A stretch of 51,506 nucleotides of DNA, counting the filler, from Stramenopiles sp. TOSAG23-6 (taxonomy: Eukaryota): NCBI GenBank assembly GCA_900128565.1. It is 2 parts of 2 records of this genome, joined end to end, with 100 filler letters (N's around TTAATTAATTAA, not from the genome) between each part and the next. Parts side by side here need not be neighbours in the genome. Positions count along the whole stretch, not along the records: positions 1 to 25,704 come from LT635992.1; positions 25,805 to 51,506 come from LT635993.1. The stretch is one strand, 5' to 3'. The notes below the pieces were generated by a model. It was not told the DNA's origin. It did not search any database and saw nothing but the letters and a program-made list of their open reading frames with translations. The translations under genes were made by a program, and so were the position numbers. Positions within the stretch are counted from its first letter, which is position 1; each line of letters starts with the position of its first letter. This document shows positions 56 through 46,080 of the stretch, piece by piece.

Positions 56-1922
56 CCGCTTTACAGTATAGAAAGTTCACTCCGGGTACAACAATATTCG
101 AAAGGAATACCAAAGGTTGCACAGCCTATTTAGTTTTGAATGGTTCAGTGAAACTTTCATTTGGTAACAGAAATATATCATATGTAGCTCCTGGCGAATG
201 TTTTGGAGAAGAAGTACGTTTCATTTCAATTTTGAATTTATTATTTTTTCAAAAAATCCTTTTAAAAACCAACAAAATATTTTGAATTTAAAATATTCTT
301 CACAATACGTGCTTTACTTACAATGAATTCAAAGAGAGAAACTGATGCCTATGCAGTTTTTAAAAACAATAAAGCGATTGAATGTCCTGAAAATGATGTA
401 AACAAAATTGTATCATTTGTGGAATGTGCGGAAATTTCAGTTGAAGATTATTTGCTGATACGTTTAGAATTGCGAAAATCAAGTCAACAATATTGTAATA
501 TTTTACAAACAAAATTTTCTTTATTTCAAAAATGGTCAAAACCACAAGTCTACCAAATAAGTAAGAAACTTCAAATAAATACTTATAAACCAGGTACAGT
601 AATTTATCGAGAAAAAGATGATGCTACAGCATTATTTTTAGTTTTTTCAGGTGAATTGAGTGGATTTTGCAAGTCAACATTTCGACAAAAAGTGTATGTT
701 TTCATTATGAATTTCATATTTGTTTGTTTTTTTCGTACTAAATTTTGTACCTAATGAAACATTTGAATTTTAAATATTTTTTCACAGTGTGAGCATTGGC
801 CAAAAGATCCAAAAAATAAAGGTAAAAATTATTCCACCCATAAAATAAGTCGATCGTTCAAGGTAGGTGCTTTTACACCTGGATTATTTTTTGGTCTTGA
901 AGGTTGTACATTTTCATCATTTGAATTTCGATTTTGTTTTGTTTTATTTTGTACCAAATTCTGTATTACCTAACGAAATTCAAATTTTTGAAATATTTTT
1001 CCACATTACTTGTAAATCTGAATTATCTCGACAAATTCAGCAGAATAAAGCAAAATATAGTACACAGGATACAGCAAACAAATTTTCTTTCAAAATGAGT
1101 AGTGAACTTTTAGAACTAATTGTGTCAGTGGATGAACTAACTGATAACCCTAACCCTAATGAAAAATTAAGAATAGAATCTGATGTAGATCAATCAACAA
1201 TGAGTTCATCATTTGAAGATAACGAATCAACCATCAGACGTGATTTTTCAGTTATTGCAAAAACAAGTGTCACAATTGCAAAATTTGATTACAAGAATTT
1301 TAAGATTCTCCCTACATCATTACTTCAGCAACTAGTCGATTTACACGATTCTCATTCGAAAAGATTAGAGATTATAAAGCACAGTACCAATCTTATACAA
1401 GAAGAAAAACGAAATAAAAAGCTTCTGCGGTTAGAATACGGTACAAAATATTGGAGTTCTAAAACTCGTGTTAAAGATTTCAGTAAAGTTGAAAAAAAAA
1501 AAAGTAATAATAAGAGAGGTTTTCGGGGTGAGATTCCTATAAATAAAATGCGTCCAATGACCTCAATTACGCCATATAGTAGTATTCGTAAGCTTAAGCA
1601 AAATAAATGTAATAAAATACGTCCAATGACGTCAATAGATCACTCTTCAAATCATTTGGAAATACTTCAATCAAAGCTGGCAATACTTCAAAACCAAGAT
1701 CTTGAAACTTCAATCAGAAAAATTCAAACAAGTCGACGTAAATTCATTTTGAAACGAAATAAAAATATGAAACAAAATATAGAAAAAAAATATACTTCTG
1801 AATGGGATGAAAAACTTAAAAATAGATCTCAATCGTCGCGTAGACGACTCATTGAAAGGAGGGGAAATTATTGGCGAAATGATGTTTTTTTTGTGGGTAC
1901 TTCAAAATCTCATGTAATTTAG
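56..1922 (+). CDS. Cyclic-nucleotide-binding (cNMP) domain protein, 5'-partial, spliced
   Basis: Exons 56-213, 311-693, 793-905, 1012-1922 give two cNMP-binding folds (KFTPGTTIFER...AYLVLNGSV...PGECFGEEALL; YKPGTVIYRE...LFLVFSGEL...PGLFFGLEG) once the repeat introns are removed. Confidence 0.75.
214..310 (+). mobile_element. Introner-like intron, GT...GT, 97 nt, degenerate core
   Basis: GTACGTTT...CACAATAC-GT; removal gives CFGEE|ALL. Confidence 0.8.
694..792 (+). mobile_element. Introner-like intron (family register GT...GA, or canonical GT-AG at 692-787)
   Basis: GTATGTTTTC, core CGTACTAAATTTTGTACCTAAT, end TTCACAGTGT; both registers keep the frame. Confidence 0.7.
906..1011 (+). mobile_element. 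Introner-like intron, GT...TT, 106 nt
   Basis: TT|GTACATTTT...TACCTAAC...CACATTAC-TT|; joins FFGLEG-C-KSEL in frame. Confidence 0.8.
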
Positions 1923-2293
1923 AAGCTTCAAAATAAAGAATTAATGAAATACTACGACTACAACAGATATTTTCAAAATATATAAATATAATTTCTTCGG
2001 TCCACGTTAACGTTACCCGGTACTTCGTTTCGGCGGTTACGTTTTTTTCTTCTTTTCCTTTTTTCNTTTTTTTCCTTTTCATTTCTCTTGTACTTTCATA
2101 CATATATAGTAAAGTCATTAGACTTACTAGATAGGCATAGTAAGTGTAAAGCCCATCCCCTTATCTAACGACTCAAAGGTAAAATAGATTGTTATTCTAC
2201 GGATTAAAACCCTTATCTTTGATCGGTGGTTTAGTCCGTTTCTTTTTGTTATAGAGGTTTAAAGCATTTTTTGCTTTAAATAAATTAAGAAAT

Positions 2294-5200
2294 ATGCTTT
2301 ACCCTGGAGCTACAGTAGACTGTACGTATGACTCGAAGTTTCGAGCAGCACGTCCAGATGAACCATACACATATCACGGACACATTACAAATATTGACGG
2401 TCCAAATATTTTCATTGATTTTGGAGCTGATGGGGTTTTTCGTTTCGAAAAATTAAGCTCAAAGAACAATACTTTAGTGGATATAGATGGTTTTGAAATA
2501 AAAGTTAAAACTCTAAATAGTCCTCTGGACAAAAGCCGACAACGTCAGTATGCACCTAAACCTTTAAAAGTAGAGAAAACGATAAAGGAGGATAAAAATA
2601 TTTTAGATTTGTTTCTTAAAACCACGGAAGATGAACTGAACCAAGAGATCAAAGTGGAACAAAGGAATACTAGGGATTTCACGATTCCAGAGCTATCTGC
2701 TTCCGTTGGCAGAGATGCTGAAAGTCCCTCTTCTACAATGGAGGATAAAAAATCACTTGCTAACTCAGGAAATCAATTACGTATATCACATAGTCCAATT
2801 TCTTTAAAATCCCAACTTCGCAGTAACTCAAAAGACATTTCCGTCGGGGATGCCATTTCAGTCTTATATTCTGAATCATTTCAACAGGAATTCCCAGGAG
2901 AGCCATACGATTATACAGGAATTGTCACGGCAATAGTTCCAGAAACTCAATTTGAAAATGGAGAACTGGTTATTGATTTTGGAGTTGAAGGAGAATTTGC
3001 ATACAAGAAAAAACGAGATTCATGTATATTTTATTTTTTTTCAAATTCGAATTTTTTTTTCGTACGAAACTTTGTACCTAACGAATTTTTTTTCAAATAT
3101 TTTTCCAAAATACATATTTCGATCCTGATGATTTCGAGGTCCGTGTGAAAATAGTCCCAAATTTATCCTCTGTCAATCAAATTTTAGTTGACGATAGAAA
3201 CTATTTTGCGACAGCAGGAAATGATACATTTAATGATTCACAAGGTTTCGCCAGTTCGCCATTTGAAAAGCAACAAAATAATAACTTAAATACAAATAGC
3301 CGACCAACCTCAAGACCTGTGCCGGGGGTCAAACCTGCGTTATGTCGCCGACCAGTTCAATTTGCTTCATTTGAAGAGGGAAAACGACTTCAGCGAGTTC
3401 CGGCAAATGATTCAAGTTCGGGAAATCCAGGTTCACTTGGTGATATGACGTATGCAATGTCTGAATTATCGAAAATGGAAATTCCAAATTGGAGGGATCA
3501 TTGTGATGCACTGAAGGAAGGAAAATGGCAGGGAAAACGAGCAGCTTTGGTTGCTATTCAAGAACAATGTGAACGGATGGGACCTAATATTGACAAATTT
3601 CACAGAGGCGTTTCTTCATTTTGTTATCAATTGACGAAAAAATTCACTGAGCGGAATTTTAACGTTATTGCTTCTGCAATCGATGTAATAACAGTAATAG
3701 CAATGGCAGGCAATGATAAACACAAGAAATTTCCTAGAGGTATTGCTGCTCTTATAATGCCAATACTTCTAAAACAGGTAGGAGATCGAAGAATTGGTGC
3801 TTCTATAAAATCACTTGCAGGTATCATTGGAGAGTGTTGCGGTGTAAAATGGATGATTCGTTTAATAACTGATACTAGTAAAAAGAAAAGCTTTAAAGAT
3901 CCAAAGGCACTTGCAGCTGTCCTCGATATAATTGCAACGTCATCCACTGAATTTGGTCCTAATGCCGTTGACCTTGATGCTGTTGTAAAATATGTATCAG
4001 GTCCGAAAGGAGTTGCACATCACCAAGGTCGTGTTGTAAATGGAGCGGCGGTAAAAGCATTAGGAGTTTTATATACCCTGGTAGGTCAACCAGTAAAAGA
4101 CATTCTTGAAGAAATGCAAACTTCGAATAAGATTATGAAACAGTTGAAAACTGCTTTTGAGGCTGGAGATGTTAATGCCAAAATAAAAGGAGGATTTACT
4201 CCAATAAACCGCAATAAATCATTAAATAAAAGTCTGAATGCTTCTAAACATAAGTCACCAAAGAAAAGTCACAGTCAACTTAGACGCTCTCTATCGAATC
4301 AGAGAAATAGTCCTACAAAACGCGGAGGTAGTTTTCTGGGATCAACACTTACTAGTTCTACTTCCAACAATTCCAATAGTACACCAGAAGAAGAAGAAAA
4401 GGCATCACAAAATGATGATATTGAGCGTATGGATATTTCACCATTTATTACAGATGATTTACTAAAGAATTTACTCGACTTCTCGAAAACGGATTCTTGG
4501 AAGCAGAGAAAGTTAGGGCTTGAAGAGTGTCATGAAATTATGACAAAAAGAGCCAAATATAGAATTATTGTAAATCGAACACTAGAAAAACTTATCAAAA
4601 TTTTAAAAGACCGTTCACTAGAAAAAAATGCAACACTTAAAATTAAAGCTCTGAAAATAATTGGCATTTTAGGATTGTCAATTGAACGGAATCATCCAAG
4701 ACGCAGTGAAATGACTCGATGGCTTGCACCTGCAATCGTAGAAACATTTGCAGACAAAAAGAGAGCTACTCTCGCAGCGGGAATATCGGCACTAAGTAGA
4801 TGGTCTTCTGGTCGATTTGGATTGTCAGGAATATTACCATCGACATGTGCATCTTTAGTAGACAAACCTGTCTCCCGTCCAGCTTTACTTGCATGGTTAT
4901 TAATACATATTCCAAAGGCAACCTCTGCTGGACATATCGATGGTACTCGCATGACAAAGTTATTAGTGAAACCATTGCTAATTTGTATGAACGACAAAAT
5001 GAAAGTGGTACAAAAACAAGCCGCAAGTGTCCTCGTAGAAGTTATTCGAGCTGATAAGTCTCACGCGAGACTCGCTGTTTCTGAAGCAGCGAGTAAATTC
5101 TCAAAAGCGATACAAAGGAGTATCGATATTGTTTTAGAACGTGTAGATACTGCTGTGGAATCGGGGAAATCTTTTAATTCGGTTGATCAGCAAGCAGCAA

Positions 5201-8619: not shown

Positions 8620-8684
8620 AGAAATAAAAAACAGTCTTACTTAAAATTATTTATTTTTTATATCATTTCAATGATCATTAGAAT

Positions 8685-25857: not shown

Positions 25858-26196
25858 GTCATTGTTGATGCATTGCATCGTGGGGACGTCCTCGCAGCAT
25901 TATGCCAAGAAACATTTGTACGTTGTCCATTGTACTTTGAATTTTTGATTATGAAAATTTCGTACGTACCTGACGAAGTTTTTTTTTACCGAAAAAAAAA
26001 ATATTTTTTCACAATACATATTTGTTTTATTTTTTTGAATTTTGAATTTATTTTTTTTCCGTACCAAATTTTATACCTAACAAAAAAACAAAAAAACAAA
26101 ATATTTTTTACAATACTTGGCGATCATAGCATTGTTCAACGGAAAGAATTATCGACTTTGGAAGTTTCAACACCACAAGGCCCTTCAAAAATATAG
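25858..26196 (+). CDS. 3' end of an unknown gene (exons 25858-25917 and 26119-26196); mirrored at 51115-51453 (-)
   Basis: VIVDALHRGDVLAALCQETF|GDHSIVQRKELSTLEVSTPQGPSKI* after removing the tandem introner. Confidence 0.5.
   Translation, partial: VIVDALHRGDVLAALCQETFVRCPLYFEFLIMKISYVPDEVFFYRKKKYFFTIHICFIFLNFEFIFFPYQILYLTKKQKNKIFFTILGDHSIVQRKELSTLEVSTPQGPSKI
25918..26118 (+). mobile_element. Two introner copies head-to-tail (25918-26019 and 26020-26118) forming one GT...TT intron
   Basis: Two complete core and (C/T)ACAATAC ends with no exon between; TT on both outer flanks. Confidence 0.75.
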
Positions 26197-26276
26197 TGTA
26201 AAGTTTAATTTTTTGGTTTTGTTTAGGTACAAAAAATCGTAGGAAAAAAAAAAAAACGTGTAAAGTTTAAACGAAA
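26191..26276 (-). mobile_element. Degenerate introner copy downstream (presumed 3' UTR) of the WW/EF-hand gene; mirrored at 51035-51120
   Basis: CCTACGATTTTTTGTACCTAAAC...TACACTAT-AT on the minus strand; donor end eroded. Confidence 0.55.
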
Positions 26277-26355
26277 TAAATTTATTTTTTTGTCTGAAAA
26301 TATTTGCTAAAAGCACATCTTCGAATTTATCTTTTACATTTCTTTAATTTTGAAT

Positions 26356-32300: not shown

Positions 32301-35226
32301 TCAATTCTTCCAATTCATCATTAGAAAGTCTCAGTGCAAAAGAAATTTGCATATCCCGCAACGCCTCGCGAAATTCACCGGGCGATATGAAACCATTACT
32401 ATCAGTATCATACCCCCGAAAAAGTGAAGTCAAATGTTTCTGCATCACTTCAAAACTTTCCCTTTCTTCGATAGAAACAATAAGATGATCTTCTACACTA
32501 GGCTTTTCCCATACACACACTCCAGTTGCAATTTCCCAATAATAAGGATAACCATCCTCACTCATATGTTCTTCCCATGTGTGAGGAATACGAGCAAGCG
32601 CTGCGGCTTCTGGGTCAACATTTGTTCCAAGTTTTATATTTGTTATTATATCTATTTCTAGATTTGATTCTTTTTCAAATGATTGTATTGTTTCTTGGGT
32701 CACTTTATTGGATACTTCACTTGTTGATTTATCACTAATATTCAAACCACCTGCTAATTTCATTAACTTTAGTTTTTTCATTGCCGATTGCATCGCTTTT
32801 GGTGGTTCTCGCTTATTGCTTGCAAGCCAATGTTCTACTTTTGTCTTTGTTAAAAGTGTAGCTTCATCTATACTAACCTTTCCATCACCATTACCCATTT
32901 TATCTGCCATTAACAATAACTGTTCTAGCTCATTGTCAGGTATTGAAAGAGCAAATGCAATTTGCATATCTTGTAGTGCAGCGCGAAACTCTCCAGGGGA
33001 TATAAAGGAACTATTATCTTTATCATACTTTTGAAATAATGTTTTGAGTAGAATTTGTCTTTCTTCCTCAGTTTCTTCATGTTTTCGAAGCATCAAATGT
33101 TTTGGTATCCCAGCAGGATACTCCCATTGACTTGTATTTGTGTCTGTATTGAAGAAGAAAAGTGTTCCATCTTCAGCTTTATGCTCTTCCCATTCCCCGA
33201 GTTTTGTTGTGTCTCCAACACTGACAACACGAATTCTATTCATTATTTTTCGTATCTTTGAAACTCTTTGCGATTTCACTTTTATTTTTTCCTGTGCATC
33301 ATGCGCTATAAGCCACTCTTCAATAGTTTTAAGCGACAGATTGAGAATCTCTGAGATACTCACTTTACCATCACCATTTTTATCAGCAGTACTAAGAAGA
33401 GATTGTATTTGTTCATCAGATAATGACACAGAAAGTTTTGCTATATCTATTTTGTGTAAGTCTTTCAAACAATTCTTAAACTCTTGAATTGATATTTCTC
33501 CACTATGATCTTCATCGTAAACACGAAATAAACCTTCTAAACGATGTTGTCGTTGTAAAATCCCGGCATTTCCTTCCTTTGCAATTTTTTCTGGTAACAC
33601 ATCCGCTGGAGGGTGCCAAAGAGAGTTTTCTGTCAAAATATTATAGTAGAATACACCGCCTTTGCCATCTTCACATGTATTATGAAAACAAAATTTAAAA
33701 ATTCGAAATTCGTTAGGTATAGAATCTTTGGATTTGGTATGAAAAAAAATAAATTTGAAATTATAAATTAGGGTTTTAAATGAAAACGTACATTCTTCCC
33801 AAGAAACAGGAATTTGTGCAAATATATTTGGGGCAGATTTTGAACTATTAAAAGCTGATTTATGTGCGCGTATAGCAACAACAGATGCATCATATGCAAA
33901 GTATGCAGCATCTGAAGCAGATTTCGCTGCTTTTACTTTTTCCCTATCAAAAGCCCCTAGTTGATGAAGTTCTGCCTCTGCACGGCCTACACTTAATTTA
34001 GCATTTTCACATTCTTCCTGTAAAGCATTCAATTTTATTTTTTGTGAATTCAGTTTTAATTTTATTCTATTCAATTTCAATAATTGTTTTTGAACATTTT
34101 CCTCCGCTTTTACAATATTTGTTTCGAGTATTTTAATATTTTTCCTTGCACTGGTAATGGCAACTTTATTAGATTTAAAAGTTTGACCCCGACTGATAAG
34201 AGTCTGGAGGCGCTCAATTTCAGCATTATTTGCATCAAAATCGTCCTTTGCGTTTCGTTTTATATTTTCAGCATTTTCATATTTTATAGTTTCTGTTGTG
34301 ACCTCATTTTTGATGTTATCGAATATTTTTTGTGCTTTTAAAACGCGTTTTTGTAATTGCTCATATTTAGATTTATTCTGTGATATTGTTTTCATTGCAA
34401 CTTTTTCGGACTCTCCACACAATTCAAGATAGGCTTGTAATTCTCCAGCTGCATGAATTATGAAAAAATATTTCAAAAAAAATATTTTTTCGTTAGGTAC
34501 AAAATTTCGTACGTAAAAAAAAGATAAAAAATTGAAATGAAAACGTACATCTATTGATTCAAAGAGAACTCTGTCGTGTTCGACTTTGAGTTCATTGTAC
34601 AGTTTTGTCATTCCTTCCAGTTTTTGTTTAGATTTTGATAACTTTGCTTCTCTTTTTGATATTTGGTTTTGAACTATTTCTATTTTTTTATCACATTTTT
34701 TGAGCTTCTTTTTCTTTGCGTTTTCAGTCTTCAATTCCGTTTTTTCTGTGTTGAGTTGTTCCAGAGCAGCGATTGATTCATTGTACACACCAAGGATAAG
34801 AGAATGTTCTTGTTGACTTTCTTCCATATTTTGCTTTGCTGTCAATAACTTTTGAGCTGCCTTGGCATGAAGCGAGGCTATTTTTTTATGAGCTTTCGCG
34901 GCAATTCGACTAGCTTTAGCAGCTGCTTTCTGGTCAACCTTTTCGTCTCTTAAATACTGAAGAAAATCGCTCTTTCGCCTGTTAAATCTTTTCATCTGTA
35001 TTTCTTCTGGCGACAATCTACTATTTTCTGAGAGTTTCACTTGTACTTTCATTTTCCTGAATAATTTACCGAGGCGCTTGGCAGGTGCCTCGACTATACT
35101 TGAACCATCTGCTTTTAAAATAAGCCACGGTTTAACGCCTTGAGGCGCTTCCCACTGAGAAGAATTTGTTTCCGAGTCAAAATAAAATACACCTCCTTCG
35201 CCATCATCATGAATTTCCCACACCAT
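26356..35226 (-). CDS. Giant multi-WW / EF-hand / coiled-coil / IQ protein, spliced
   Basis: Repeated WEEH...YY.N..T..SQWE.P and YDxDxSGxIS...D.NGDGKVS modules; IQ motif CIQSLARGMLTR; introns 33675-33791 and 34453-34548. Confidence 0.85.
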   Translation of the reverse strand: MVWEIHDDGEGGVFYFDSETNSSQWEAPQGVKPWLILKADGSSIVEAPAKRLGKLFRKMKVQVKLSENSRLSPEEIQMKRFNRRKSDFLQYLRDEKVDQKAAAKASRIAAKAHKKIASLHAKAAQKLLTAKQNMEESQQEHSLILGVYNESIAALEQLNTEKTELKTENAKKKKLKKCDKKIEIVQNQISKREAKLSKSKQKLEGMTKLYNELKVEHDRVLFESIDVRFHFNFLSFFYVRNFVPNEKIFFLKYFFIIHAAGELQAYLELCGESEKVAMKTISQNKSKYEQLQKRVLKAQKIFDNIKNEVTTETIKYENAENIKRNAKDDFDANNAEIERLQTLISRGQTFKSNKVAITSARKNIKILETNIVKAEENVQKQLLKLNRIKLKLNSQKIKLNALQEECENAKLSVGRAEAELHQLGAFDREKVKAAKSASDAAYFAYDASVVAIRAHKSAFNSSKSAPNIFAQIPVSWEECTFSFKTLIYNFKFIFFHTKSKDSIPNEFRIFKFCFHNTCEDGKGGVFYYNILTENSLWHPPADVLPEKIAKEGNAGILQRQHRLEGLFRVYDEDHSGEISIQEFKNCLKDLHKIDIAKLSVSLSDEQIQSLLSTADKNGDGKVSISEILNLSLKTIEEWLIAHDAQEKIKVKSQRVSKIRKIMNRIRVVSVGDTTKLGEWEEHKAEDGTLFFFNTDTNTSQWEYPAGIPKHLMLRKHEETEEERQILLKTLFQKYDKDNSSFISPGEFRAALQDMQIAFALSIPDNELEQLLLMADKMGNGDGKVSIDEATLLTKTKVEHWLASNKREPPKAMQSAMKKLKLMKLAGGLNISDKSTSEVSNKVTQETIQSFEKESNLEIDIITNIKLGTNVDPEAAALARIPHTWEEHMSEDGYPYYWEIATGVCVWEKPSVEDHLIVSIEERESFEVMQKHLTSLFRGYDTDSNGFISPGEFREALRDMQISFALRLSNDELEELMSFSDTNNDGKVDLVEATQLTHNVIKVWLKSRQYSVKDVIKSSISKMNVWGLSEFDFAKAGGSLLGKWEEHKAEDGTLFFFNTDTNTSQWEYPAGIPKHLMLRKHEETEEERQILLKTLFQKYDKDNSSFISPGEFRAALQDMQIAFALSIPDNELEQLLLMADKMGNGDGKVSIDEATLLTKTKVEHWLASNNREPPKAMQSAMKKLKIMGFTKPSGTSAPLIKQPQKHEWEEHIDADGHTYYWCIVTGQCQWNKPDVPVELLKKIDGKLNSIERQKHIQSLFTSYDADNNGFISSSEFQQVIFDMQVKDAFKIDGKIIPMNDEQLDALLSSADSNADGKVSIVEAAKITYKYVEEWFQKQRNPPTAIKSALNKMKLVGLHGNILKNVVPKVENVKNDTDTETINETELDFVDSIKTKISDVDNSVVDSIETKISDVDNSIVDSIETKISDVDNSKIDATESIGEENVVAKIISIDEINSSRAIGESSEINGIDEHEHVLSLLKNLGSRVDLIKIDENYFILQMFRKLLGHRCKLKTRTYKSGNVTPKDETEDKLVMKNAIIIAKSIANCVTEFASTLERDIVEIENFIEIEKKKICLAQYIQESANVAITASIAIKLVLDETETSINHAIMKAQAYTVESERPVKKNGALKILLKNAMKAKSVSSAWISRVKEDCELAAQKEESLRHEVESLQSELSICENNVCDAQNILSNAIVKVEEKVRLTTIKLSKREANVETLKIESFHVVGARETEKLQSRIEEELIAIETERQRIKSMCTSNSADVLSAKKDLQQTENESKKVALKCTKVQKDWEAAQNDANQKLTNVTNAKQQAFKEEEAIQSSRNTIMQQVELENERDHLAFTAFSLNKTCNIAAEKLKRLRKQSQILDHTEGRTIGEDRQNKTDIGTMRLHDEHIDDVNEMKKKTTEIDNVENEATEKEIIEIEAAEEELRKAKEEAKHAKAAWEAKRIACKKAEEAAAAKRVAEEEAAALKKRIETAKLERTNAKANVENAAKIRESLSATLQRIKEEEASAVAFEIQTECSRDEILAMKRQRRLEVEAEATAAHGYLQSTLDSNKPEAAAVFDKISENLKKLTALEFETTQNLNEEVNFAKQKTTLKEEELRNAKEALAISSLDYDAANAMYNVKKLEEEEIHSYLQVCAQKKALEASARKAKLRASIQKSKLSHLRQQLEWQCNIKNAAKVAAIKTLENVETNSRLKHEMYQNAKDDYNKVVKASQLAVENTIGDKTSSIAWYIAATASEAALQCYIKAEIMLAMTLIETAAHEEIQAISAAKQAEEEFRKINVKWANEFSSAAIVRHDSEETQTALLENAVKEHEKVKEQLKNSVLHHSEALAARVAWDSSSNDRCKTSRSISEKRRIDRHKRKAEYDNAIDARNAKAQQAEKDAREKAKEASRIKRVKQQQEWREKAMAKARAKVAATVASSATVEAMFMFNLCKSSVILARKRKIQIECSKEVAIAAYVAAGAAVYSFKLSKNAIQSIVSAKHRLRPILAKAAYVSASALLIARRERHRADHFVLDCIKSNQDAYRRHVVALKIEERQCGKSMADAATVCYQSALSSALSSAVAMAYVGSTIARHFSNIAANANDKVQEELRIRQEAITVAIQRAVIISCDAASFASTKSSLAISEAIRVKKVRRQELQNAARAARIAARAARRAFKYAEQVLVYIKAEISSFQNTSKWREIYNHKKMRYYYINKTTNEKTYMKPGPLLLKDEARMKLLKFGAEKAREMMLLQKSRQKLQQNDQCIDNLNTDKAFNIKDVDNASFFRRNHQSKAHPSFILKEKLKPISFSTINTILSMEFGLDWAELSPIGQLRCMRMSREKTALHNKVASCIQSLARGMLTRLRLKKLKSDADPKDNTFIHTKSRRRQSRKPKYTGKILNIQQPDKYYLPAIRPVIHDTCKKPFPKQVKINQRKKNRRFGARNRPTFGSDEGRKLASKMGLSSFGNPSFTLS
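30930..31068. repeat. 42-bp tandem repeat, about 3 copies (DSIETKISDVDNSI)
   Basis: TACTATTGTCTACATCACTGATCTTTGTCTCTATTGAATCAACGA repeated. Confidence 0.9.
31679..33192. repeat. Near-identical ~420-bp internal direct repeat (31679-32100 and 32771-33192) encoding a WW + EF-hand-pair module
   Basis: Offset 1092 bp, very few mismatches; KWEEHKAEDG...MKKLK repeated in the protein. Confidence 0.9.
33675..33791 (-). mobile_element. Introner-like intron, GT...AT, 117 nt, in frame
   Basis: Removal gives WEECEDGKGGVFYY, colinear with the N-terminal WW (WEIHDDGEGGVFYF). Confidence 0.9.
34453..34548 (-). mobile_element. Introner-like intron, GT...AT, 96 nt, in frame
   Basis: AT|GTACGTTTTC...CGTACGAAATTTTGTACCTAAC...CATAATTC-AT|. 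Confidence 0.85.
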
Positions 35227-36444: not shown

Positions 36445-36515
36445 GGAGTTTTCAAAACATTGAAATTTGTTAGGTACGAAATTTTCATACAAAAATAAAA
36501 AAAAATCGGAGATTT
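36445..36515 (-). mobile_element. Intergenic relic of the introner core
   Basis: TTTTGTATGAAAATTTCGTACCTAACAAATTT on the minus strand, without recognisable ends. Confidence 0.55.
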
Positions 36516-36678
36516 TCGATCTTTGAAGAAGGTTTTTGAATTTTATCGATCCGACGATATAATAAATTTATCGATCCTCGCGTACTACACTGATCAATAT
36601 TCAAATTGTATATATTTTACGATACTTCTTTTGAGTTATTCAGGAATAATCTACTTAAATCTTTCACTCAAACAGACA

Positions 36679-38569
36679 ATGAATCGTCTTTCTTGCTTTT
36701 CTGTAAGTATGTCAAAGCACCTAATTGGAATTTTGGTCTCATTATTTCTCCCCATAATTGTTCTCGGCACACATAGTGATGGACCAAGTGGAGGACGGAG
36801 TAAGGAAGTTTTGAACATGATGAGCGACTTCTCTTCAAAGTTGGCAAATATTGATGAAAGTATGCCAATCGGGTTAGATGATTTCTCGAATAGATTTAGA
36901 GGCTCTAGTGAGAGAGATTCCGGGATACAAATAACGATAAAGGAAAAAGAACTTCCTCAAAAAAATTTCCCCTTTTTATCATTTGATCCGCTTACATTAC
37001 TCGAAGACCAAAGCACTAACAAAACTCATCCTCAAACCAACAATACTCAACCTCAAGCCAGTAGCATAACTCAACCTCAAGCCAGCAACACAACTGATGT
37101 GCGTTTTCAAAATCAATTTCGATTTTTATTTATACCAAATTTTGTGCCTAACGATTTTTTTACTGATTTTTTTTTCACAATACATCAAGCACAGGGATTA
37201 AATTCAACCCAAATCCAAGGATTGCATGGGAATTCTACTATAACAGAGCCTTTTGTATTGGACTCTCATCGAGCACCAGGAGTTCCATATTATCATGCAA
37301 CTAAGTCAACAGATCTTTCTTCTTCTTCTTCTTCGGAAGATAACTGTTGCTCAGATAGCTTGGCACCAGGAATCCCAGGTTGGACTTCGGATTTAGATAT
37401 AATTGATGAGAATGCCATTCGAGCAATGGAAGGTGCCATGTACGTTTTCAAAATTTATTATTCTTATCTATTTTTGTTGTTGCAAAAATTGAACTCAACT
37501 TTCATACAAAAAAGAAATATTTCTTCACAATATAGTAAGCCTGTGATGAGACGAGCTGAACAAGATAAGCAAGTTGCAGATTTGATGACGGAACAAGCCA
37601 AGCTCTTTCAAGAGAAGGCTTTGGGTAGTCAGAAAGTGGCTCAAGAGACAAAAGAAAAGGTTGATAAATTGACATCTGCTGTACGAGCTAAACAAGATAT
37701 ATTTATTGCAACGGGACTCCATCAAGATGTACGTCTTCCATCATTTTAAATTTTAAATTTATTTTTTTGAAAAACATCTGTACCCTATGTTAACAAAAAA
37801 ATCAAATTTGAAATATTTTTTCACAATACATGCAGTGAGAGCACAATATATCACAAAAGCCCAATTGAAAGCTCAGGAAGCAACAGTAAAGCACCTACGG
37901 AAAAAATCAGAAGAAGCCGATGAAGCTCAAAAAAAATCATCGGAACGACTAGACAAAGTAGTACAGCAGTTTAAAAGTATTTCGAACCAACTACCTAGTG
38001 TCTTCATGGCACAAAAACTAGCTCAGAGGGCAGAAGATGCAGTTGGTAAACCTGAAATGAATGGTTTAATCGAAACATGGAATTTGCAGGGCATGGATCC
38101 GGACTCTCATGAAAATACAAGAGATACAAAGAATTCAGTGACAGTCGAAATTTCACCAACTCCATGCAAAGCTTCAAGTGAACCTTGCGGTGAATCGAGA
38201 CCAGCGGACGCAGCAGAAGCAGACACAGCAGACCCATCAGCACCAGCACCAACACCGCCAAATCCACCAACAACACAAGCAAACGCAGAAGCAGTACCGG
38301 CAGCAATAACAGAAGATTTAGCAGAAGCAAAAGCAAACGCAGCAACAGCTGGCACATTGGTGGAGTCAAACGCACATTCCGCGGAAAGCAGAGGAGACTT
38401 CGAGCGTTTGAAGGAAAGCCTCGAGAATAGTATTCAACGGGAGGCAGAGCGTGTGAAAAAACGCCTCGAGAATATCGAGAAAATACAAAATTCAATTACA
38501 AAGGAAATTTCTTCACCAGTGAAAGGTGAAAAAGAGGGAATGACTCAAAAAAGTGAGCCTATAGTATAA
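36679..38569 (+). CDS. Secreted coiled-coil protein A of unknown function, 3 introns
   Basis: Signal peptide; exons 36679-37098, 37186-37439, 37536-37728, 37832-38569; paralogous to 40096-41520. Confidence 0.7.
37099..37185 (+). mobile_element. Introner-like intron, GT...AT, 87 nt, in frame
   Basis: AT|GTGCGTTTTC...TTTTGTGCCTAAC...CACAATAC-AT|. Confidence 0.8.
37440..37535 (+). mobile_element. Introner-family intron with canonical GT...AG ends and eroded core, 96 nt
   Basis: AT|GTACGTTTTC...CACAATAT-AG|; AG lies exactly at the family's terminal NN position. Confidence 0.8.
37729..37831 (+). mobile_element. Introner-like intron, GT...AT, 103 nt
   Basis: Joins ORFs 36523 and 37787; spliced product is colinear with the intronless paralog. 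Confidence 0.88.
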
Positions 38570-39215
38570 CAAAATTTAATAGTAAAATAAATTACAACGA
38601 CAAAAACATTAGTAGCTTGAGTACTCTATTAAAAGAATAACCCCCACACTTTGAATTCTGTTTCATCCCCAGTTGCATTTTTATCAGTGTGTACCGCAAA
38701 GAGTTTTGCGCAGCATGCAGACTTCACATCTTTGACTATAGGATTTGGCTCTGTTGTGGGGTTTACTCGAAGAGCTTTGAGGTTCCTGAGCGTTGCGTTT
38801 GCTCCAATATTTCTAAGGTTTCTGAAAAATACTGTTCCATAATAGCATGGTTGTCATTGAACAAATAAAATTCCTATTGATAAATTGCTGACAGCTGCAA
38901 CTTTAGGGTACGGGCATAGGGTATAGGGTCATGAATTAGCTACCGAAATTACCGGATAATCATCATCCGTACGTTACTTTTTTTCGAAAGCAAAGCAAAG
39001 AAAATCTTCTTCGCTCGATCTAGATCGCGAAGTCACCGTTGATGATACTGTTAAGACAATATCGTGTAACATTTTTGATCGAACTATTACTTAAAACTTT
39101 CTAACGTGAAGACTCGATTCACTATCTTAATTCAGATTGTTTAAAATTATATTGGAAATTATACTAGTTTAATTTTCAGTGTTCAACCCAAAGCATCCTT
39201 TACCCAATCAAACCT

Positions 39216-39758
39216 ATGATGATGCCATCTTTAAATATGTCAAAGCACGTTACTCTTCTGGGGGTTATATTGATACTATTCCAATCCAAAAATTTCAATT
39301 GCTATGCTACGCTGATTTCCGTCAAGAGTGTTCAAGCTTTGACAGACAGTCCCGAGGACCGTATAAATGAAGCTGTTCAAGGTATGTCAGACAGTGCTGT
39401 GAATGCTCGGAAATTTCTTCAGAAATATCCTTCCAATTACAGTTCTGCTAACCCCATTGTGGCTGAATCTTTGAAACAATTACAAAGTGATGTATCAAGG
39501 ATTGTAGCTTTGCATGAAGCACATGATCATAATGGTTATAATCATTATAATGTTGATTCGGATTATCAACATATGATACAAGATGCACAGGGGGAGATTT
39601 TCAATAGAGTTACGATGAAAGCTTTGGAAAATGGAACAAATGCAAGTTTAAATGGATTCAATCAAGAAGAAAAAATTCACGAAAAGGTTGCTCATGTGGC
39701 GGACAATGCACGCGAAAAAGTGACTGGGTTACAACAGAACCTTCGAAGTAACATTTAG
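39216..39758 (+). CDS. Secreted protein B of unknown function
   Basis: 180-aa ORF with signal peptide MMMPSLNMSKHVTLLGVILILF. Confidence 0.65.
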   Translation: MMMPSLNMSKHVTLLGVILILFQSKNFNCYATLISVKSVQALTDSPEDRINEAVQGMSDSAVNARKFLQKYPSNYSSANPIVAESLKQLQSDVSRIVALHEAHDHNGYNHYNVDSDYQHMIQDAQGEIFNRVTMKALENGTNASLNGFNQEEKIHEKVAHVADNAREKVTGLQQNLRSNI

Positions 39759-40095
39759 AATATACTGTAGGGTATCATCATTCCTGTTTTTAAAAATAAA
39801 ATTTAAATTGCAAATTCATTTCGATTTTTTTCTTTTTCAAATTTAAAAATTTTTCAAAACTTGCTGCGATCTAGATCTCGATCCTGAGATAGCTAGAGAT
39901 CGATCGACCGTATCTTAGTACAACAATTAATTGGATTGGATCTTCTACCATACCTTCCAATTTTTTAATTAAAACAGACTAAACACCACTATCCAAATTT
40001 GCGTAATTTAAGCATAACTGTTGAGTAGAGGTAGATTAGTCTAATTTTTAGTGTTGAACTCACCGTATTCTTTCTTTAACACTGTCAGGTCTACG

Positions 40096-41520
40096 ATGAG
40101 TCCTCCATCTTTGAATATTTCAAAGTACCTACTAGTTGTTATGATATTTACGTTAATTTCCCCTAAAACGGTTTTCTGCGCAAAACAGCATAAGGTAAAA
40201 CTGAGGAATGTGTTAGAAATGCCTAGTGACTCAAAAAATAATCAAAGGGTGTCCATACACGGAGGACTGCAATCTAATAGATTTACAGATATCGAAACAA
40301 TGAACACCGCTTCTGGAAAACAACAAGTTATGTCTCTAAATAGATTCAGAGGTACCCACGAGAACACTACGATTGCTTGTGGCAAAGAAAACAGTGTTAC
40401 TCCTTGTGGTGAGGTACCCCAGGAAAATCCGGTTGAGTATTATACAGTAAGCAAGGGCTCAGGATCTGCTGAAGGGTGTTGTTCGACGGCGGCTGATGAC
40501 GCTATTATAGAACAAGCAGAAAGGGATAAACTTGCAGCTGATTTAGCCTTGAAAAATGCAAAAATACTTGAAGAAAATGCAAAAAAGAGTGCAGATGCTG
40601 CAAAGAGTGCAATATCTAAAAGAGATGATTTAAACAGTAGAATTAGAGTGAAGACAATCTTAGATGAAGCAAAAAAGAAACATCTTAGAGCAACTGAAAG
40701 ATACGGAATCACGAAGGCACAACTTCGAGCTCAGGAAGCAGCAGTAAAACACTTAAGTATAGATGCGAAAAATGCAAAGCAGTCATTAGAAGAATCAACT
40801 GAAGAATTGGATAAAGCATTCGCGGCCTTTAGAAGTCTCGCGACTAAATTGCCTAGTGTTACATTGGCAGAGAACTTAGCAGAAGAGGCTGAGAATGCAA
40901 TTGGTAAACCAGAGATGAATGATTTAATTCAGACGTGGAATTCGGCCAAATCAAATTTGGACAAAAATTCAACACCATGTAACTCTTCGGGAAATCCTTG
41001 TGAAAATCATAACAACGAGGTAAAGCCGTGTAACTCAACAGATAAAGGATGTGGTGTCCCAAAGGAAAGTGGAGATGATACCCTGCACGAATTTGCTACA
41101 GACAACGATGTAGAAATCGATATATCTACAGAAAAAATTGGTTCAAATATGAAAAACTTAAAAATTCCTGCTCCAGAGAAGGCATCTTTACAAGGCAATT
41201 CAAGTGATGATACCCAGCANGANTTTGCTACAGGCAACGATGTAGAAATCGAGATATCTACAGAAGACATTGGTTCAAATATGAAAACCTTGAAAATGCC
41301 AACTCCAGAGAAGACATTGGTAGCTCCATGTGATTCTTCTGTCAAACCTTGTACGAAGAATATTACAGATACATTAACTCTGGTTGATCCATGCAACTTT
41401 TCGGAAGCTGGTTGTGTCTCCGGAGAACATCAAGATCATAAAAGTGACACTGCTGTTTTAAGTACTAGTTCTAAAGATTTAATAGCTGATTTTGTAAACG
41501 ACACAAAGGAAAATTCATAA
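40096..41520 (+). CDS. Secreted coiled-coil protein C, intronless paralog of A, with internal ~130-bp duplication
   Basis: Shares ITKAQL.AQEA.VKHL...LPSV..A..LA..AE.A.GKPEMN.LI.TWN with A; FAT.NDVEI.ISTE.IGSNMK.LK occurs twice. Confidence 0.7.
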   Translation: MSPPSLNISKYLLVVMIFTLISPKTVFCAKQHKVKLRNVLEMPSDSKNNQRVSIHGGLQSNRFTDIETMNTASGKQQVMSLNRFRGTHENTTIACGKENSVTPCGEVPQENPVEYYTVSKGSGSAEGCCSTAADDAIIEQAERDKLAADLALKNAKILEENAKKSADAAKSAISKRDDLNSRIRVKTILDEAKKKHLRATERYGITKAQLRAQEAAVKHLSIDAKNAKQSLEESTEELDKAFAAFRSLATKLPSVTLAENLAEEAENAIGKPEMNDLIQTWNSAKSNLDKNSTPCNSSGNPCENHNNEVKPCNSTDKGCGVPKESGDDTLHEFATDNDVEIDISTEKIGSNMKNLKIPAPEKASLQGNSSDDTQXXFATGNDVEIEISTEDIGSNMKTLKMPTPEKTLVAPCDSSVKPCTKNITDTLTLVDPCNFSEAGCVSGEHQDHKSDTAVLSTSSKDLIADFVNDTKENS

Positions 41521-41553
41521 TAAAAAGCATTTCATTCTAATGTTTATAGTTTA

Positions 41554-43615
41554 TTATATCGAAACTTTGGTTGACTGATCTTTCTTTATACAGTCATTGT
41601 CCGAGCTAAGAAAAACGGGTGTTTTGTAGCATCTGCCTTGGACTAACTTTGAAAGCCCTTCGCCACTGAAACTTAATTTGGCAGACACTTCACATAAATC
41701 TTCACCAACTACAGTAGCACCTGCCGCTATCAACCATTTTCTATGTAGGTTTGACGTCATGAGTCTAGCTGTTTCTGGCGAGTCATTTCCCGTCGCGTTC
41801 TTGACTGGCGAAAATTCATTCTCACGATTCACTTCAAGTACTACAAGGTTACTTGCTATAGGGAACAAATCAAATATGAATGACTCTAATTTTATACCAT
41901 TTCTTTCTCTCGGGTTTGGATCATCGACACAAGGAATCACACAATGTGAAAAAATATATTTTTTTTTGGCTGAAAAAAAATCGTTAATTACAACATTTGG
42001 TACAAATAAAAAAACAAAAAAAAATTCAACTTTTGAAACGAACACTTTCTTTGCAATATGGTATTTACGAGGCAAATTATTCGGTGCACAGTTATTTTTA
42101 AGAAAATCAAAAGAGTAGTAGTGTATGCAAACGTTACCTGCACGAAAAGTAAGTTGACCGTTCAAATCACACTTTTTTAATAATTCTGGTTTCATATCAG
42201 AATATTCCACGACGCAAGTGATGTATTGTGAAAAAAAAAAATTGTTTTTAGTAAAAAAAATCAGTTAGGTACGAAATTTCGTATGAAAAATATATACTGA
42301 AAATATTCAATTTTGAAAACGTTCATTCCGGAGCGACGACAGAGTACACCCACTTTCTCTTCTGGGTTAGTTTTCGACACAACTTTGTTACCTACATCTG
42401 CATTTCGATCTCGGCAATAGCCTACAAATACTGGATCTCCCACTTTACTCATTGCATTATCAATTGCACCACACCAAATATGTATTGTGAAAAAACATTG
42501 TTTTTTGGAGAAAAATCGTTAGGTACGAAATTTCGTATGAAAAAATTGAAATTTAATTTTGAAAACGTACACTCGACACTCCTTTACGTTGCATATGACT
42601 AATTGGGGATTCCGTGCCTAATGTTGATCCACAACCATGTAGGGCTCGATAGATCCCACCATTACCGTCTGGTGCAGTCGCTACTTCAAACTTAGATTTA
42701 AGAAGAATTTTACCATCCGGTGAGAGACAAGGTAAAGTATTGTGAAAAATATATTTTTTTTTTTTTGTAAAATAAAAAAAATTGTTAGGTACGAAATTCC
42801 GTACGAAAAAAAAATAGGTAAAAAAAATTCAATTTTGAAAACGTACAAGTGCCTTGCTTGAAAAACACGACTTGATCTTCAGCTAAGCCAAAGTTATTAT
42901 TAGCTTTGAAATATTTTACTGTATCATCATATATTGTCAAATAATATGGTTGAAGTTTGAAATTCGTTAATTTTTGGAAGAGTACAAAAATTGGATTTAA
43001 TTTGGGTAGTAAATATACAAAAAAACTCAAAAAAAATGCTAGGTACGAAATTTTCTACGAAGAAAAAAAGTAAATTTGAAATTCATCATGAAAACGTACA
43101 TCAGTCATTGGACTCGTCATTACATATAACCAGACTTTTGGCTGCACATTTGAAATTTCAGGAAAGTTCATTTTCGCAAGTTCTTGTAGTTTGAGTATGC
43201 GTTCACACTGCAACTGGAAAAGACTCTTTTTGCTCAAGAGACCAATGTTAAATTCTCCTTTTGGACGATTGGATTTCAAACGTGTACCTTGACCTCCCGC
43301 CATAATGATGACACCTAATTCTTGCATTGCAACAGCTTTCAAGCCATTGTTGCGCCATGCTTCAGTTTGGTCATTTGGGACGTCACTTAAAACAGTAACC
43401 GATTCGCAAGGTTGGAGGGTTCCACCAGTTCCACTCTCAGTAGCAAGACCATCCATCGTTGCTTTATAAATATTGTTGACGTACTCAGGGTCGTGTTCGC
43501 CTAATTGTTCTAAGAACATCTTCAACTCAATGTTTGATGAATCCTTTTCACAAAATCGCATGACATGTCCCTGTTTGGCATCTGCATAACGCTTCTGCTG
43601 AATAGAAAAATTCAT
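41554..43615 (-). CDS. UAP1: UDP-N-acetylglucosamine pyrophosphorylase, 5 introns
   Basis: [46 protein letters not shown]...[33 protein letters not shown]. Confidence 0.95.
41939..42043 (-). mobile_element. Introner-like intron, GT...GT, 105 nt, in frame
   Basis: GT|GTTCGTTT...CACATTGT-GT|; restores HIAKK-V-IPCVD. Confidence 0.85.
42221..42324 (-). mobile_element. Introner-like intron, GA...AT, 104 nt
   Basis: AT|GAACGTTTTC...CACAATAC-AT|; restores [17 protein letters not shown]. Confidence 0.88.
42480..42570 (-). mobile_element. Introner-like intron, GT...AT, 91 nt
   Basis: Gives [13 protein letters not shown] with the usual G-to-DN spacing of UAP. Confidence 0.88.
42735..42846 (-). mobile_element. 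Introner-like intron, GT...TT, 112 nt
   Basis: Restores conserved QGT-L-PC. Confidence 0.92.
42929..43099 (-). mobile_element. Composite introner intron, GT...AT, 171 nt (truncated copy plus a second degenerate copy)
   Basis: Restores MTSPMTD|DDTVKYF; a second TT-GTATATTT start lies near 43018. Confidence 0.8.
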
Positions 43616-43700
43616 ATTTAGTCAGATGATTTCAAAAGCACTTGTGGGCTACCTAAAAATTGCCATCAGTAGGTAGACGTTGTTGACCAGTAGTAGGTAT

Positions 43701-43727
43701 TAACCCTAACCCTAACCTTAACCCTAA
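43701..43727 (+). repeat. Interstitial telomere-like (CCCTAA)n tract in the divergent UAP1/GlnRS intergenic region
   Basis: TAACCCTAACCCTAACCTTAACCCTAA. Confidence 0.7.
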
Positions 43728-43923
43728 TTTAACTATATCAAGTCCACGACACGTGTGTGAGCAGTCACAAATTCACAAGTCATGATGTGTACCAACAACA
43801 ACAACAACAACAACAACAGCAAAACATTGTATTAGTTTATTTTGAGTAAATATTTCAAGATGGTACGATACCTCGATACAGTTTAATCTAACAGAAAGGC
43901 TTGTAAAACATAATAGCATATTA

Positions 43924-46080
43924 ATGAGTGAATTAGCTTTATTTCGTACTTCTTTACGTCTACAACTGAAACACTTTTCAAGAGTTTCGAATATTCCCAA
44001 CAGTCATTTTGCTTTTTCCACGGCTACTCCTTCAAACTTTGTGCGTTCACTTGTAGCATCAGATGTAGCAAATGGAAAGTTTGGTGGTCGAGTTCAGACA
44101 AGATTTCCACCAGAGCCAAGCGGCTACTTGCATATTGGACATGCAAAAGCCATGTGTATCAACTTTGGAATAGCCAGTGATTATCGCGGCGGTTTATGTA
44201 ACTTGAGATTGGACGATACAAATCCGGCTAACGTTAAGGAAGATTACGTCGCTGCAATTGCTGCTGATGTAAAATGGTTAGGATATAATTGGGATGGCGA
44301 TATACTCTATGCATCAGATTATTTTGATGATTTGTTTAATTTTGCTAAAGCTCTTATTAAGAGTGGCAAAGCTTATGTCTGTGAAGTCTCGCAGGATGAG
44401 TGGCATAAAGGAGGACACGCTGGAACTTTAACAACTCCTGGTGTACCATGTAAATATCGCAATAGACCAATAGACGAGAGTTTACAACGATTTAATGAAA
44501 TGCGTGATGGAGTTCATCCGGAGGGTTCAATTGTTCTTCGTGCAAAAATCGATTTATCATCGTCGAATATGCACATGAGAGACCCTATGAACGTTTTATT
44601 TTTTTTTACAAAAAAATCGATTTTTTTTTCGTACGAAATTTCGTACCTAACAAATTTTACAATTTTTTTTTTTCACAATGTATACTATATAGAGTGTTGA
44701 AAAAAAATCACTTTCGCACGGGCTCTACATGGAAAATTTATCCGACATATGATTATGCGCACGGTATTTCCGATGCGATAGAAGGTGTTACACACTCTTT
44801 ATGTACTTTAGAGTTTGAAGAACATCGTGCTTTATATAATTGGTTTGTTGATGCGGTTGGTGTTGGAACTGGACTTTGGCATTCAGACGATGATGGCGAT
44901 GTGATGAAACGCCAGCCTGAACAAACAGAGTTTTCTAGACTAAATATATCCAATTCAATTACATCAAAACGTTGGCTTCGTGCTCTCATTGATGCAGATA
45001 TTTTATCGGGTTGGGATGATCCTCGTATTCTAACGATTGCTGGGATGAGAAGACGTGGTTACCCGGCTCCCGCAATTAGAGGTTTTTGTAATGGTACAGG
45101 TTTTAATCGCACATCTGAGGGGGTAGTTGATATGAAAATGTTAGAATCATTTGTCCGTGATGAATTAGATAAAAATGCTCCTCGTGCTATGGGAGTTTTA
45201 TACCCCTTGAAAGTTATCATTGAAAATTTTGATGATGCGTTTCGAAGTTATGGTTCAAAGAATAACCCTAACCCTAGTTCAAATGAGAATCTTGGTGGTA
45301 ATAGTGCTACTCTTTGTATTCCAAATCATCCCAAGAATCCTGATATGGGCACGAGAGCGGTGCCAATTTCGAAGGAAATATTTATTGATAGAAATGATTT
45401 TAAAATTGAGGCGAACAAAAAGTTCAAGCGCATGTATGTTTTCACATTTTAAATTTTGATTTTTTTTTCATAGTAAATTTTGTACCTAACGATTTTTGAT
45501 TTTTTTTTTGAAATCTTTTTCACAATACATGACAATGAAACAAAGTGTTCGTCTCCGAGGATCCTTTATCATTCGTTGCAAAAAGGTAATTACAGATAAA
45601 GTTACTGGTGAGCCTATAGAATTGCACTGTGTTGCAGACGAGAATTCAATCGGCAATAACCCTGATCTTAAAAATGGGCCGAAACCAAAAGGAGTTGTAC
45701 ACTGGGTTTGTGGAAGCAGTTCTGTTCCAGCAGAGGTTCGACTGTACAGTAATTTATTTATTGAAGATTGCGAAGATCCAGTAGCTGCTGCAATGGAAGC
45801 CTCGAAATTGCATGAATGTAATAATGATAATAGCAATGCTTTACCAGATGTGTCGTTTTTTGAACCATTTTTGAATAAAACTTCGAAAATTGTGATTTCG
45901 GATTGTCGCGTGGAAACAAGTATTTCACAGGCTACCCACGGAAGTGTGTTACAATTTGAACGCGAAGGATATTTTGTTATTGATGATGATTCTAAGTATA
46001 CGAACGATGGGAAACTAAGTAGTCTTGTGTTGAACAAAACGATTGGTTTAAAGGCAGGGAAGGGATTTGCTCGGAAATAA
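43924..46080 (+). CDS. glnS: Glutaminyl-tRNA synthetase (short, bacterial-like, with putative organellar transit peptide), 2 introns
   Basis: TRFPPEPSGYLHIGHAKA, LRLDDTNP, MRDP-I-LYR, IYPTYDYAH, THSLCTLEF, GWDDPR, PKGVVHWV, QFEREGYF. Confidence 0.93.
44589..44683 (+). mobile_element. Introner-like intron, GA...AT, 95 nt
   Basis: AT|GAACGTTTT...CGTACGAAATTTCGTACCTAAC...CACAATGT-AT|; restores conserved MRDP-I-LYR. Confidence 0.92.
45434..45530 (+). mobile_element. Introner-like intron, GT...AT, 97 nt
   Basis: Restores KFKR-M-TMKQSVRLR, matching GlnRS KR-to-VRLR spacing. Confidence 0.9.

Follow-up and report, generated by a model that had tools for sequence, protein, structure and literature searches.

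Why do the last two bases of an intron so often repeat the two exon bases that stand before it? The question is raised by a 51,506-nucleotide (nt) stretch of DNA from Stramenopiles sp. TOSAG23-6 (GCA_900128565.1; contigs LT635992.1 and LT635993.1, joined end to end), which we refer to in its whole length as the window. The DNA is AT-rich and eukaryotic, and its genes carry many copies of one intron family. A reading made from the sequence alone had proposed that these introns come from a miniature inverted-repeat transposable element (MITE) or DNA transposon, with a 2-bp target-site duplication and short GTA...TAC inverted ends. We find that the duplication is solid and the MITE label is not, and that the most surprising part is a candidate U1 small nuclear RNA (snRNA) matched to the introns. 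The best explanation, and in our judgement a probable one, is a non-autonomous introner that makes a 2-bp duplication and is removed by U1-matched splicing.

The two-base match of exon and intron ends

The window tally consists of 23 introns listed with 18 matches, and a 171-nt intron (43099-42929) that adds one AT/AT match. The last two intron bases equal the two preceding exon bases in 19 of these 24 introns (AT/AT 13, TT/TT 5, GT/GT 1, exon bases first), and the base before the intron is T in 23 of the 24, so that the counts of the sequence-only reading are reproduced exactly. A tandem pair at 25918-26118 was counted once, among the TT/TT introns. The unequal copies are those at 214, 694, 15862, 37440 and 42570-42480. 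The family features of the window are as follows.

1-55, plus strand: family copy truncated at the window edge, 3' part only, with a TT end
214-310, plus strand: family intron, AA/GT, unequal, frame restored
694-789, plus strand: family intron after GT, unequal; the 3' end may be TG or GA, or the true reading a shifted GT-AG
906-1011, plus strand: family intron, TT/TT
3024-3115, plus strand: family intron, AT/AT
11976-12067, minus strand: family intron, TT/TT, in a leucine-rich repeat (LRR) gene
12153-12242, minus strand: family intron, AT/AT
15549-15645, plus strand: family intron, TT/TT, in a CCCH zinc-finger gene
15862-15953, plus strand: family intron, TT/AT, unequal
19421-19516, plus strand: family intron, AT/AT
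20823-20925, plus strand: family intron, AT/AT, within an ankyrin repeat
25166-25258, minus strand: family intron, AT/AT
25805-25857, plus strand: family copy of which only the 3' part follows the N gap, with an AT end
25918-26118, plus strand: tandem pair taken as a single intron, TT-copy-AT-degenerate copy-TT, with a mirror image at about 51193-51393, minus strand
33675-33791, minus strand: family intron, AT/AT
34453-34548, minus strand: family intron, AT/AT, 96 nt, without an in-frame stop
36469-36488, minus strand: core motif lacking intron ends, about 190 nt upstream of a start codon
37099-37185, plus strand: family intron, AT/AT, 87 nt, without an in-frame stop
37440-37535, plus strand: family intron, AT/AG, unequal, canonical AG end
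37729-37831, plus strand: family intron, AT/AT
41939-42043, minus strand: family intron, GT/GT, in a UDPGP-family pyrophosphorylase gene; seen too in an independent DNA run, X2
42221-42324, minus strand: family intron, AT/AT; also present in X2
42480-42570, minus strand: family intron, GT/AT, unequal
42735-42846, minus strand: family intron, TT/TT
42929-43099, minus strand: family intron, AT/AT, long (171 nt), read from the sequence and its frames
44589-44683, plus strand: family intron, AT/AT, in a glutaminyl-tRNA synthetase gene; the public model P0001 reads into it
45434-45530, plus strand: family intron, AT/AT, in the same gene

The 21-Mb assembly (G000) contains several mirrored or duplicated contigs, which inflate counts, so genome-wide counts are raw; in the window itself, the start (25805-26300) and finish (51000-51506) of the second contig are the same sequence in opposite orientation. 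In the assembly, the family core, TACGAAATTTYGTACCTAAC, is matched 10,264 times at no more than 2 mismatches, duplicated contigs included, as compared to 2 for a control. As expected of an introner, many similar introns are found at unrelated loci, and full-length pairs are up to 95.6% identical. Copies were called with weight matrices over 929 kb of the assembly, blind to the exon bases and to the last two intron bases. The 340 distinct cores gave 198 copies with both ends well scored, and the other 142 were dropped for weak end scores.

The flanks match in 141 of the 198 copies, where 100.3 matches are expected and the maximum in 10,000 shuffles is 115. The sequence-only reading had set its duplication against a fixed T-G...NT motif (hyphens mark junctions), and genome-wide the matching exceeds what such a motif gives. 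Removal of GT through anchor+2 restores the reading frame in 137 of 152 frame-clear copies, and 102 of these 137 match (74.2 expected); with the window left out, the numbers are 92 of 124 (67.7 expected). The signal lies mainly at position -2 (109 vs 83.7), with a little at -1 (120 vs 115), and none is seen from -3 to -8.

Could a fixed splicing motif at both ends, with AT on the exon side driven by U1 and AT at the intron end, give this match with no duplication? Such a motif explains the T at -1 and the AT/AT majority, 1,461 of 1,864 genome-wide pattern matches, in a table made with a strict pattern for T-ending copies only, with the listed rows split by eye. After AT (1,544 copies), the introns end in AT (1,461), GT (20), TT (62, about 40 of which are internal-motif matches), or CT (1). 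After GT (157), the ends are AT (97), GT (54), TT (5), and CT (1), and after TT (163), they are AT (78), GT (3), and TT (82, at least 2 of them internal matches); 13 more TT-preceded matches have a C or G end. For the first 20 of 51 CT-preceded copies, 3 end in CT and 15 in AT. A fixed motif cannot yield the 54 GT/GT, 82 TT/TT and 3 CT/CT copies, and the flank association has odds ratios of 40 and 24 and a chi-square of 835. As a whole explanation the fixed motif is refuted, and we give it almost no weight; it stands only as a cause of the AT bias.

The nearest neighbours of 14 TT/TT copies end in AT (9), TT (3), and GT (2), and copy pairs with 94-95% identity differ in their ends according to their own flanks (CT/CT vs AT/AT, GT/GT vs GT/AT). 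Thus, the end is not inherited with the element. A homogeneous young subfamily with a near-invariant 28-base start, recognizable by the donor followed by TATATGAATTTC, is preceded by AT in 43, GT in 32, TT in 15, and other bases in 10 of the first 100 of 136 rows, read by eye. Its GT- or TT-preceded copies with a known end match in 13 of 19 cases; for the family as a whole, the figure is 136 of 320. Relatives are closer for matched than for unmatched copies (0.815 vs 0.766, p = 0.007); within non-AT sites, the difference is not significant (p = 0.12). A dimer with zero exon at L032 reads AT-copy-AT-copy-AT, each copy being bounded by AT, and an intron-less kinase paralog has the dinucleotide once (L080 vs L042). 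The match is locus-specific, exactly 2 bp long, and not inherited with the element, and a target duplication is therefore supported, together with the seamless removal and the co-opted non-AG 3' end that had been proposed with it. A duplication with a locus-specific matching position is what the consulted text of PMC9860276 describes for introners, and its fixed length, 2 bp at -2 and -1 only, is also as expected of a MITE. A locus-specific match nevertheless falls short of proving mobility.

A candidate U1 snRNA and the splice register

How are introns of this kind recognized? An Rfam search of the assembly, in which 41 of 253 candidates were scored, gave one U1 candidate on two identical contigs (E = 8e-12). 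It has an Sm site and belongs to a tight cluster of U5, U2, U1, and U4 snRNA genes, arranged head to tail over no more than 640 bases (L177:9-645, G000:C1146). The loops of the candidate for 70K and U1A binding differ from the Rfam consensus. At the 5' end it reads AAACGUACAUGG in place of the consensus AUACUUACCUGG; it starts AAACGUACAUG, and over its first 11 bases it is perfectly complementary to CAU-GUACGUUU. It departs from the consensus in three changes, whose pairing partners are U at -1, either C or U at +4, and U at +7. Over the 198 junctions, the candidate pairs at 9.99 of 11 positions and the Rfam consensus at 7.23, with -9.0 and -1.8 kcal/mol, respectively. Compensation of weak intron-side pairing by exon-side pairing was not seen in these junctions (rho = 0.11, p = 0.11).

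The U5 loop 1, the branch-pairing arm of U2, and the ACAGAGA box of U6 (separate contig, L180:953-1056) are standard. The branch-like motif of the family, CCTAAC, is followed by a purine in 97% of copies, lies about 39 nt from the end, and fits pairing with U2. The terminal AG of major (U2-type) introns is present in 5 of 198 copies; the donor pairing with U1 and the branch pairing with U2, as judged by sequence, are those of the major class. The donor, GTAYGTTT, is not the ATATCC or GTATCC of minor (U12-type) AT-AC introns; no search for minor snRNAs was made.

Since the U1 candidate pairs with CAU, the T at -1, A at -2, and C at -3 should not be read as pure target preference, and U1 pairing would explain much of the AT bias through splicing. 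The T before the intron and the AT majority, offered earlier as a target preference, hold as counts and lose their value as clean evidence of target choice. The exact register (GT...NT, TG..N, or NTG..AC) had also been called ambiguous in most copies, and it is less so than was stated. The geometry of U1 places the cut before G and favours the GT...NT register. The NTG..AC register (-2) puts a stop codon in L107 (EWW becomes E-stop-W) and breaks an NH motif in L088, a GC-AG copy; we take L107 to be a MATE transporter and the L088 motif to be SET-like. Furthermore, mismatches at -2 are enriched at third codon positions (15/40 vs 13/97, p = 0.002), which favours GT...NT as well.

A family copy at L090:6363 (minus strand) has fully canonical ends, TAG-GTAAGT...AG, and may have been converted into an ordinary intron or derived from one. 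The idea that the U1 5' end came from an antisense copy was considered and rejected: only about 25 nt lie between U2 and U1, and the element body is absent.

The ends of the element and the search for a mover

Is the family a genuine MITE whose terminal inverted repeats (TIRs; GTAT...ATAC) are very short and eroded and which is moved by a 2-bp-duplicating DDE transposase, either ISL2EU-like at AT or CACTA-like? The inverted bases do start exactly at the duplication boundary, and the flanks, C-AT-G, are roughly palindromic (C at -3 in 36%, G at +1 in 48%). Six of the first seven end positions pair in 35 of the 198 copies, and true end pairs are slightly above permuted ones (4.33 vs 4.27 of 7, p = 0.005), a small excess that probably comes from subfamily structure. 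However, the perfect inverted run is 4 bases in 58 copies, at least 3 in 111, and at least 5 in none, which is below the 6 bases asked of a MITE in the consulted text of Gozashti 2022 (PMC9860276). None of 16 end-to-end base pairs covaries convincingly (best p = 0.02, uncorrected). The subterminal pairing that had been proposed, 5' TTTTCAAAA with 3' TTTTGAAA, is contradicted by the copies, which have the former in 13 cases, the latter in 85, and both together in 0 of 198 (Fisher p = 0.0007). Introns generally obey a YAG-type rule at the 3' end, and such a rule or U1 pairing accounts for the GTA, the T at +4, and the Y at -3.

Duplication of AT is known for ISL2EU (PMC4482050), which the family shares. 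However, the ends of ISL2EU are usually GG, with lengths of 6-259 bp, the target is A-AT-T, the partner is YqaJ, and the hosts in that survey, in the text consulted, are only animals; none of this applies here. YqaJ has no match in the assembly, and neither does the CACTA Transposase_21, for which the control was silent. A Harbinger-like DDE_Tnp_4 element that was located (L112) makes a TAA duplication and has GGCCG ends. The MITE origin drawn from the GTA...TAC ends is thus not borne out, and we regard it as improbable.

Other readings of the ends were tried and not kept. Covariation of the first and last bases (A...C or A...A) looked real in the sample (3/11 vs 8/186, p = 0.017), but of 57 additional A-start copies after AT, 20 were fetched and only 2 showed it, and it is not claimed. 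A-start copies with T at -3, taken as compensated inverted ends, were 6 of 20, close to the 23% background, and this reading is rejected. An inner TA duplication, as in a mariner reading, is rejected too: it needs six extra bases in the empty site and leaves the NT covariation unexplained.

The copies might also have spread without recognition by a transposase, through an intermediate, either RNA or single-stranded, that repair or target-primed synthesis captures at staggered breaks. This would agree with conserved parts that are mostly splice signals, with copies that lie nearly all sense-wise in genes, with the absence of real inverted ends, and with the commonest core variant, which retains a G-U pair (94 G-T, 32 G-C). 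However, repair and retrotransposition yield duplications of variable length, while the length here is constant at 2 bp, and plain reverse splicing produces no duplication. There is no poly(A) tail, and RNA folding is weak (median z = -0.9 in 118 copies). We consider this route unlikely. An end-to-end RNA hairpin was also rejected, as the ends are paired in only 25 of 118 folds (from the first 120 of the 198 copies).

What, then, moves the element? The transposase genes in the assembly comprise 5 matches to DDE_Tnp_4 (two distinct loci read), 2 to DDE_3, and 1 to DDE_1. The longer element with the same termini that the sequence-only reading had suggested was not found among the five transposon-protein families searched in this incomplete assembly, and the ends that were located differ; hAT, MULE, piggyBac, Helitron, tyrosine recombinase, and reverse transcriptase were not searched for. 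No family-like ends were located at the DDE_3 loci L114 and L115 or at the DDE_Tnp_4 locus L111. L114 and L115 are IS630/Tc1-like genes that each face a second convergent open reading frame (ORF), and the L114 gene holds an AT...AC family intron. A shortened family-like copy with a full core lies at L112:1060-1110, between the two convergent ORFs of the Harbinger-like element (at least 4 identical contigs).

The best lead for the mobilizing system, as yet a tentative one, is a resident pogo-like family. Its DDE_1 element (G000:C439) is about 3.8 kb long, with an open frame of about 1,060 amino acids and DD35D spacing, and its termini, TA-GGAAGT...ACTTCC-TA, are as Fot-like pogo elements may have (PMC7386202). 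At least 2 short derivatives of about 450 bp are present (C10, C171), and inside both ends of these, facing inward, lie the intron core and T tract, 23-28 of 30 positions being identical. The autonomous element has the core at 23/30 at its left end and 19/30 at its right end. A pogo-like transposase has been reported to bind subterminal repeated motifs (PMC1636448), and a shared subterminal motif is what a pogo/Fot-like MITE would have; unlike those elements, the introns carry the motif once, centrally, have different termini, and duplicate NT. CCTAA is followed by G or T in the pogo ends and by C in 92% of the introns, as a branch site requires. The core links the introns to pogo by real homology or by a shared binding site, in either direction. 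A host DNA-binding protein as the reader of the core is a fair alternative, since core copies also lie upstream of genes.

Short CCCTAA telomere-like repeats (L090, L119, L117) are seen in some introns, inside the right end of the pogo element, and, at L117, upstream of the Harbinger-like element. Tandem introns with two or three cores (L030/L061, L073, L084, L090, L109) could be internal duplications or re-insertions.

Proposed mechanism and comparison with known systems

In the explanation that we favour, the element is a non-autonomous introner of about 90-110 nt, which lies sense-wise in exons between locus-specific 2-bp direct repeats. Each copy brings the GTAYGTTT donor, the CCTAAC motif, a T tract, and a fixed ...ATAY end. 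Insertion may occur at the DNA level at NT by a 2-nt staggered cut, as with cut-and-paste transposases, and without a diagnostic TIR; copies would persist only when sense-oriented, at sites readable by U1. The frame and the U1 and U2 pairing suggest that the intron removed by the major spliceosome runs from G to the end of the duplicated NT; removal of the element and one repeat restores the frame. Pairing with U1 and a preference at the 3' end would keep mainly NT sites, AT being the best. The asymmetry and the trend with age suggest that in older copies the 3' copy drifts to AT and the exon copy drifts at synonymous sites. The usual consensus, CAG-GT...YAG-G, would thereby have been turned into CAT-GT...YAT-G. 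We also put forward, as a possible but rather doubtful extension, that one element built around the pogo subterminal binding block and moved without TIRs gave nearly all the introns and drove the spliceosome to follow it. On this view, three pairing bases of U1, that facing the exon among them, were replaced, and the near-universal consensus became CAT-GT...YAT-G with the 3' dinucleotide written by the duplication.

Several observations weigh against the introner explanation or parts of it. The U1 candidate scores 54 bits, under the Rfam cut-off of 69.5. A standard U1 may exist too, absent from the incomplete assembly, and a canonical non-family intron (AAG-GTAAGT...CAG with a TACTAAC branch site, L063:8181, plus strand), of a kind rare in the sample, was among 13 candidates of a crude search. 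The TG..N register (-1) is excluded by the predicted U1 geometry only, and mismatches at -1 show no third-position enrichment (6/54 vs 11/83). Matching at +4 is in unexplained excess (50 vs 39, p = 0.006, one of 14 tests). About half of the TT-preceded and 62% of the GT-preceded copies end in AT, and a later change is needed for these. The single intron-less paralog has CT in the empty copy and AT at the intron end, which fits either drift or an element-borne AT. With regard to pogo, the TA (or TAA, TAAA) duplication and the GGAAGT...ACTTCC termini are absent from the introns, in which NT is duplicated, and about 6 core copies without intron ends stand about 120-250 nt upstream of start codons (window 36469-36488, L064, L078, L084, L092, L099), possibly as promoter elements or old insertions. 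Two RNA and two DNA runs were aligned to 41230-51506, and repeat-matching contigs filled the tables. No intron-skipping joint was found among 15 of 340 joints listed, with repeat matches swamping the alignment, which speaks neither for nor against splicing. The DNA run X2 retains the introns that it spans, with no polymorphic or empty copy there, and the pyrophosphorylase exon had no relative in metagenome contigs.

One contig from an RNA run spans an exon-intron boundary without being spliced. The core pattern was found in one metagenome contig, L173 (MDTB01012742.1), as a single AT/AT copy that is 94% like copies in the assembly, where its flanks and gene were not found; viral contigs gave 0 matches to the pattern.

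How does the family compare with known systems? In the Chrysochromulina-type introners of Gozashti et al. 2022 (PMC9860276), as far as the consulted text goes, the duplication is 4 bp (3-9 bp in earlier families) and GY/AG sites are expected. Common to both are a duplication without TIRs, a 5' splice site borne by the element, a 3' site from the duplication, and an unchanged mRNA length. Here, however, the duplication is 2 bp and supplies AT, TT, GT, or CT. About 72% of introner elements are unclassified as to movement, according to the text consulted of PMC12130899. The MITE-derived introns of Fritillaria borealis (PMC11282704, PMC13326754) are similar in mass gain, transposon-like character, non-AG ends, and an adapted major spliceosome. 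However, those introns, in the parts consulted, are mostly AG-AC or AG-AT with inverted repeats, and the adaptation involves U2AF paralogs and m6A, whereas here the introns have a GT donor and it is the U1 sequence that has visibly changed. In Entamoeba and Mastigamoeba balamuthi (bioRxiv 10.1101/2022.06.08.495308), the U1 arm is changed to match the donor, as here; ACGUAC is common to M. balamuthi U1 and the extra A for +7 to Entamoeba U1. The changes given there, in the text consulted, are on the intron side only, while here the base pairing with -1 is also changed (CCUG to CAUG). Also unlike those organisms, the introns matching U1 here are one mobile family. Thus, the family works like a Chrysochromulina-type introner and resembles Fritillaria in its non-AG ends, and it fails membership of the MITE, pogo-MITE, and ISL2EU groups.

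We know of few snRNA changes in print that match altered splice sites. Literature searches, in which subscription journals were thinly covered and the species lists in supplements of two introner surveys lay outside the search, found no paper on this intron family. One system here holds both a 2-bp duplication that would write the 3' splice site and a U1 arm matching the element and the exon flank. It makes testable whether a transposon can drive the evolution of the spliceosome, and why the exon end and intron end of ordinary introns share a dinucleotide.

Gene models of this organism can be wrong at family introns, as P0001 illustrates by reading into one. The protein that best matches the glutaminyl-tRNA synthetase exon is labelled as MAST-3 stramenopile, and it too continues into one of the introns. 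This gene (43846-46080) has an N-terminal extension, and after the match with its own label the listed relatives are about 50% identical, the named ones being bacterial. Three genes in tandem at 36499-41520 have N-termini like signal peptides; the first resembles a paralog of the third, and family introns are present in the first only.

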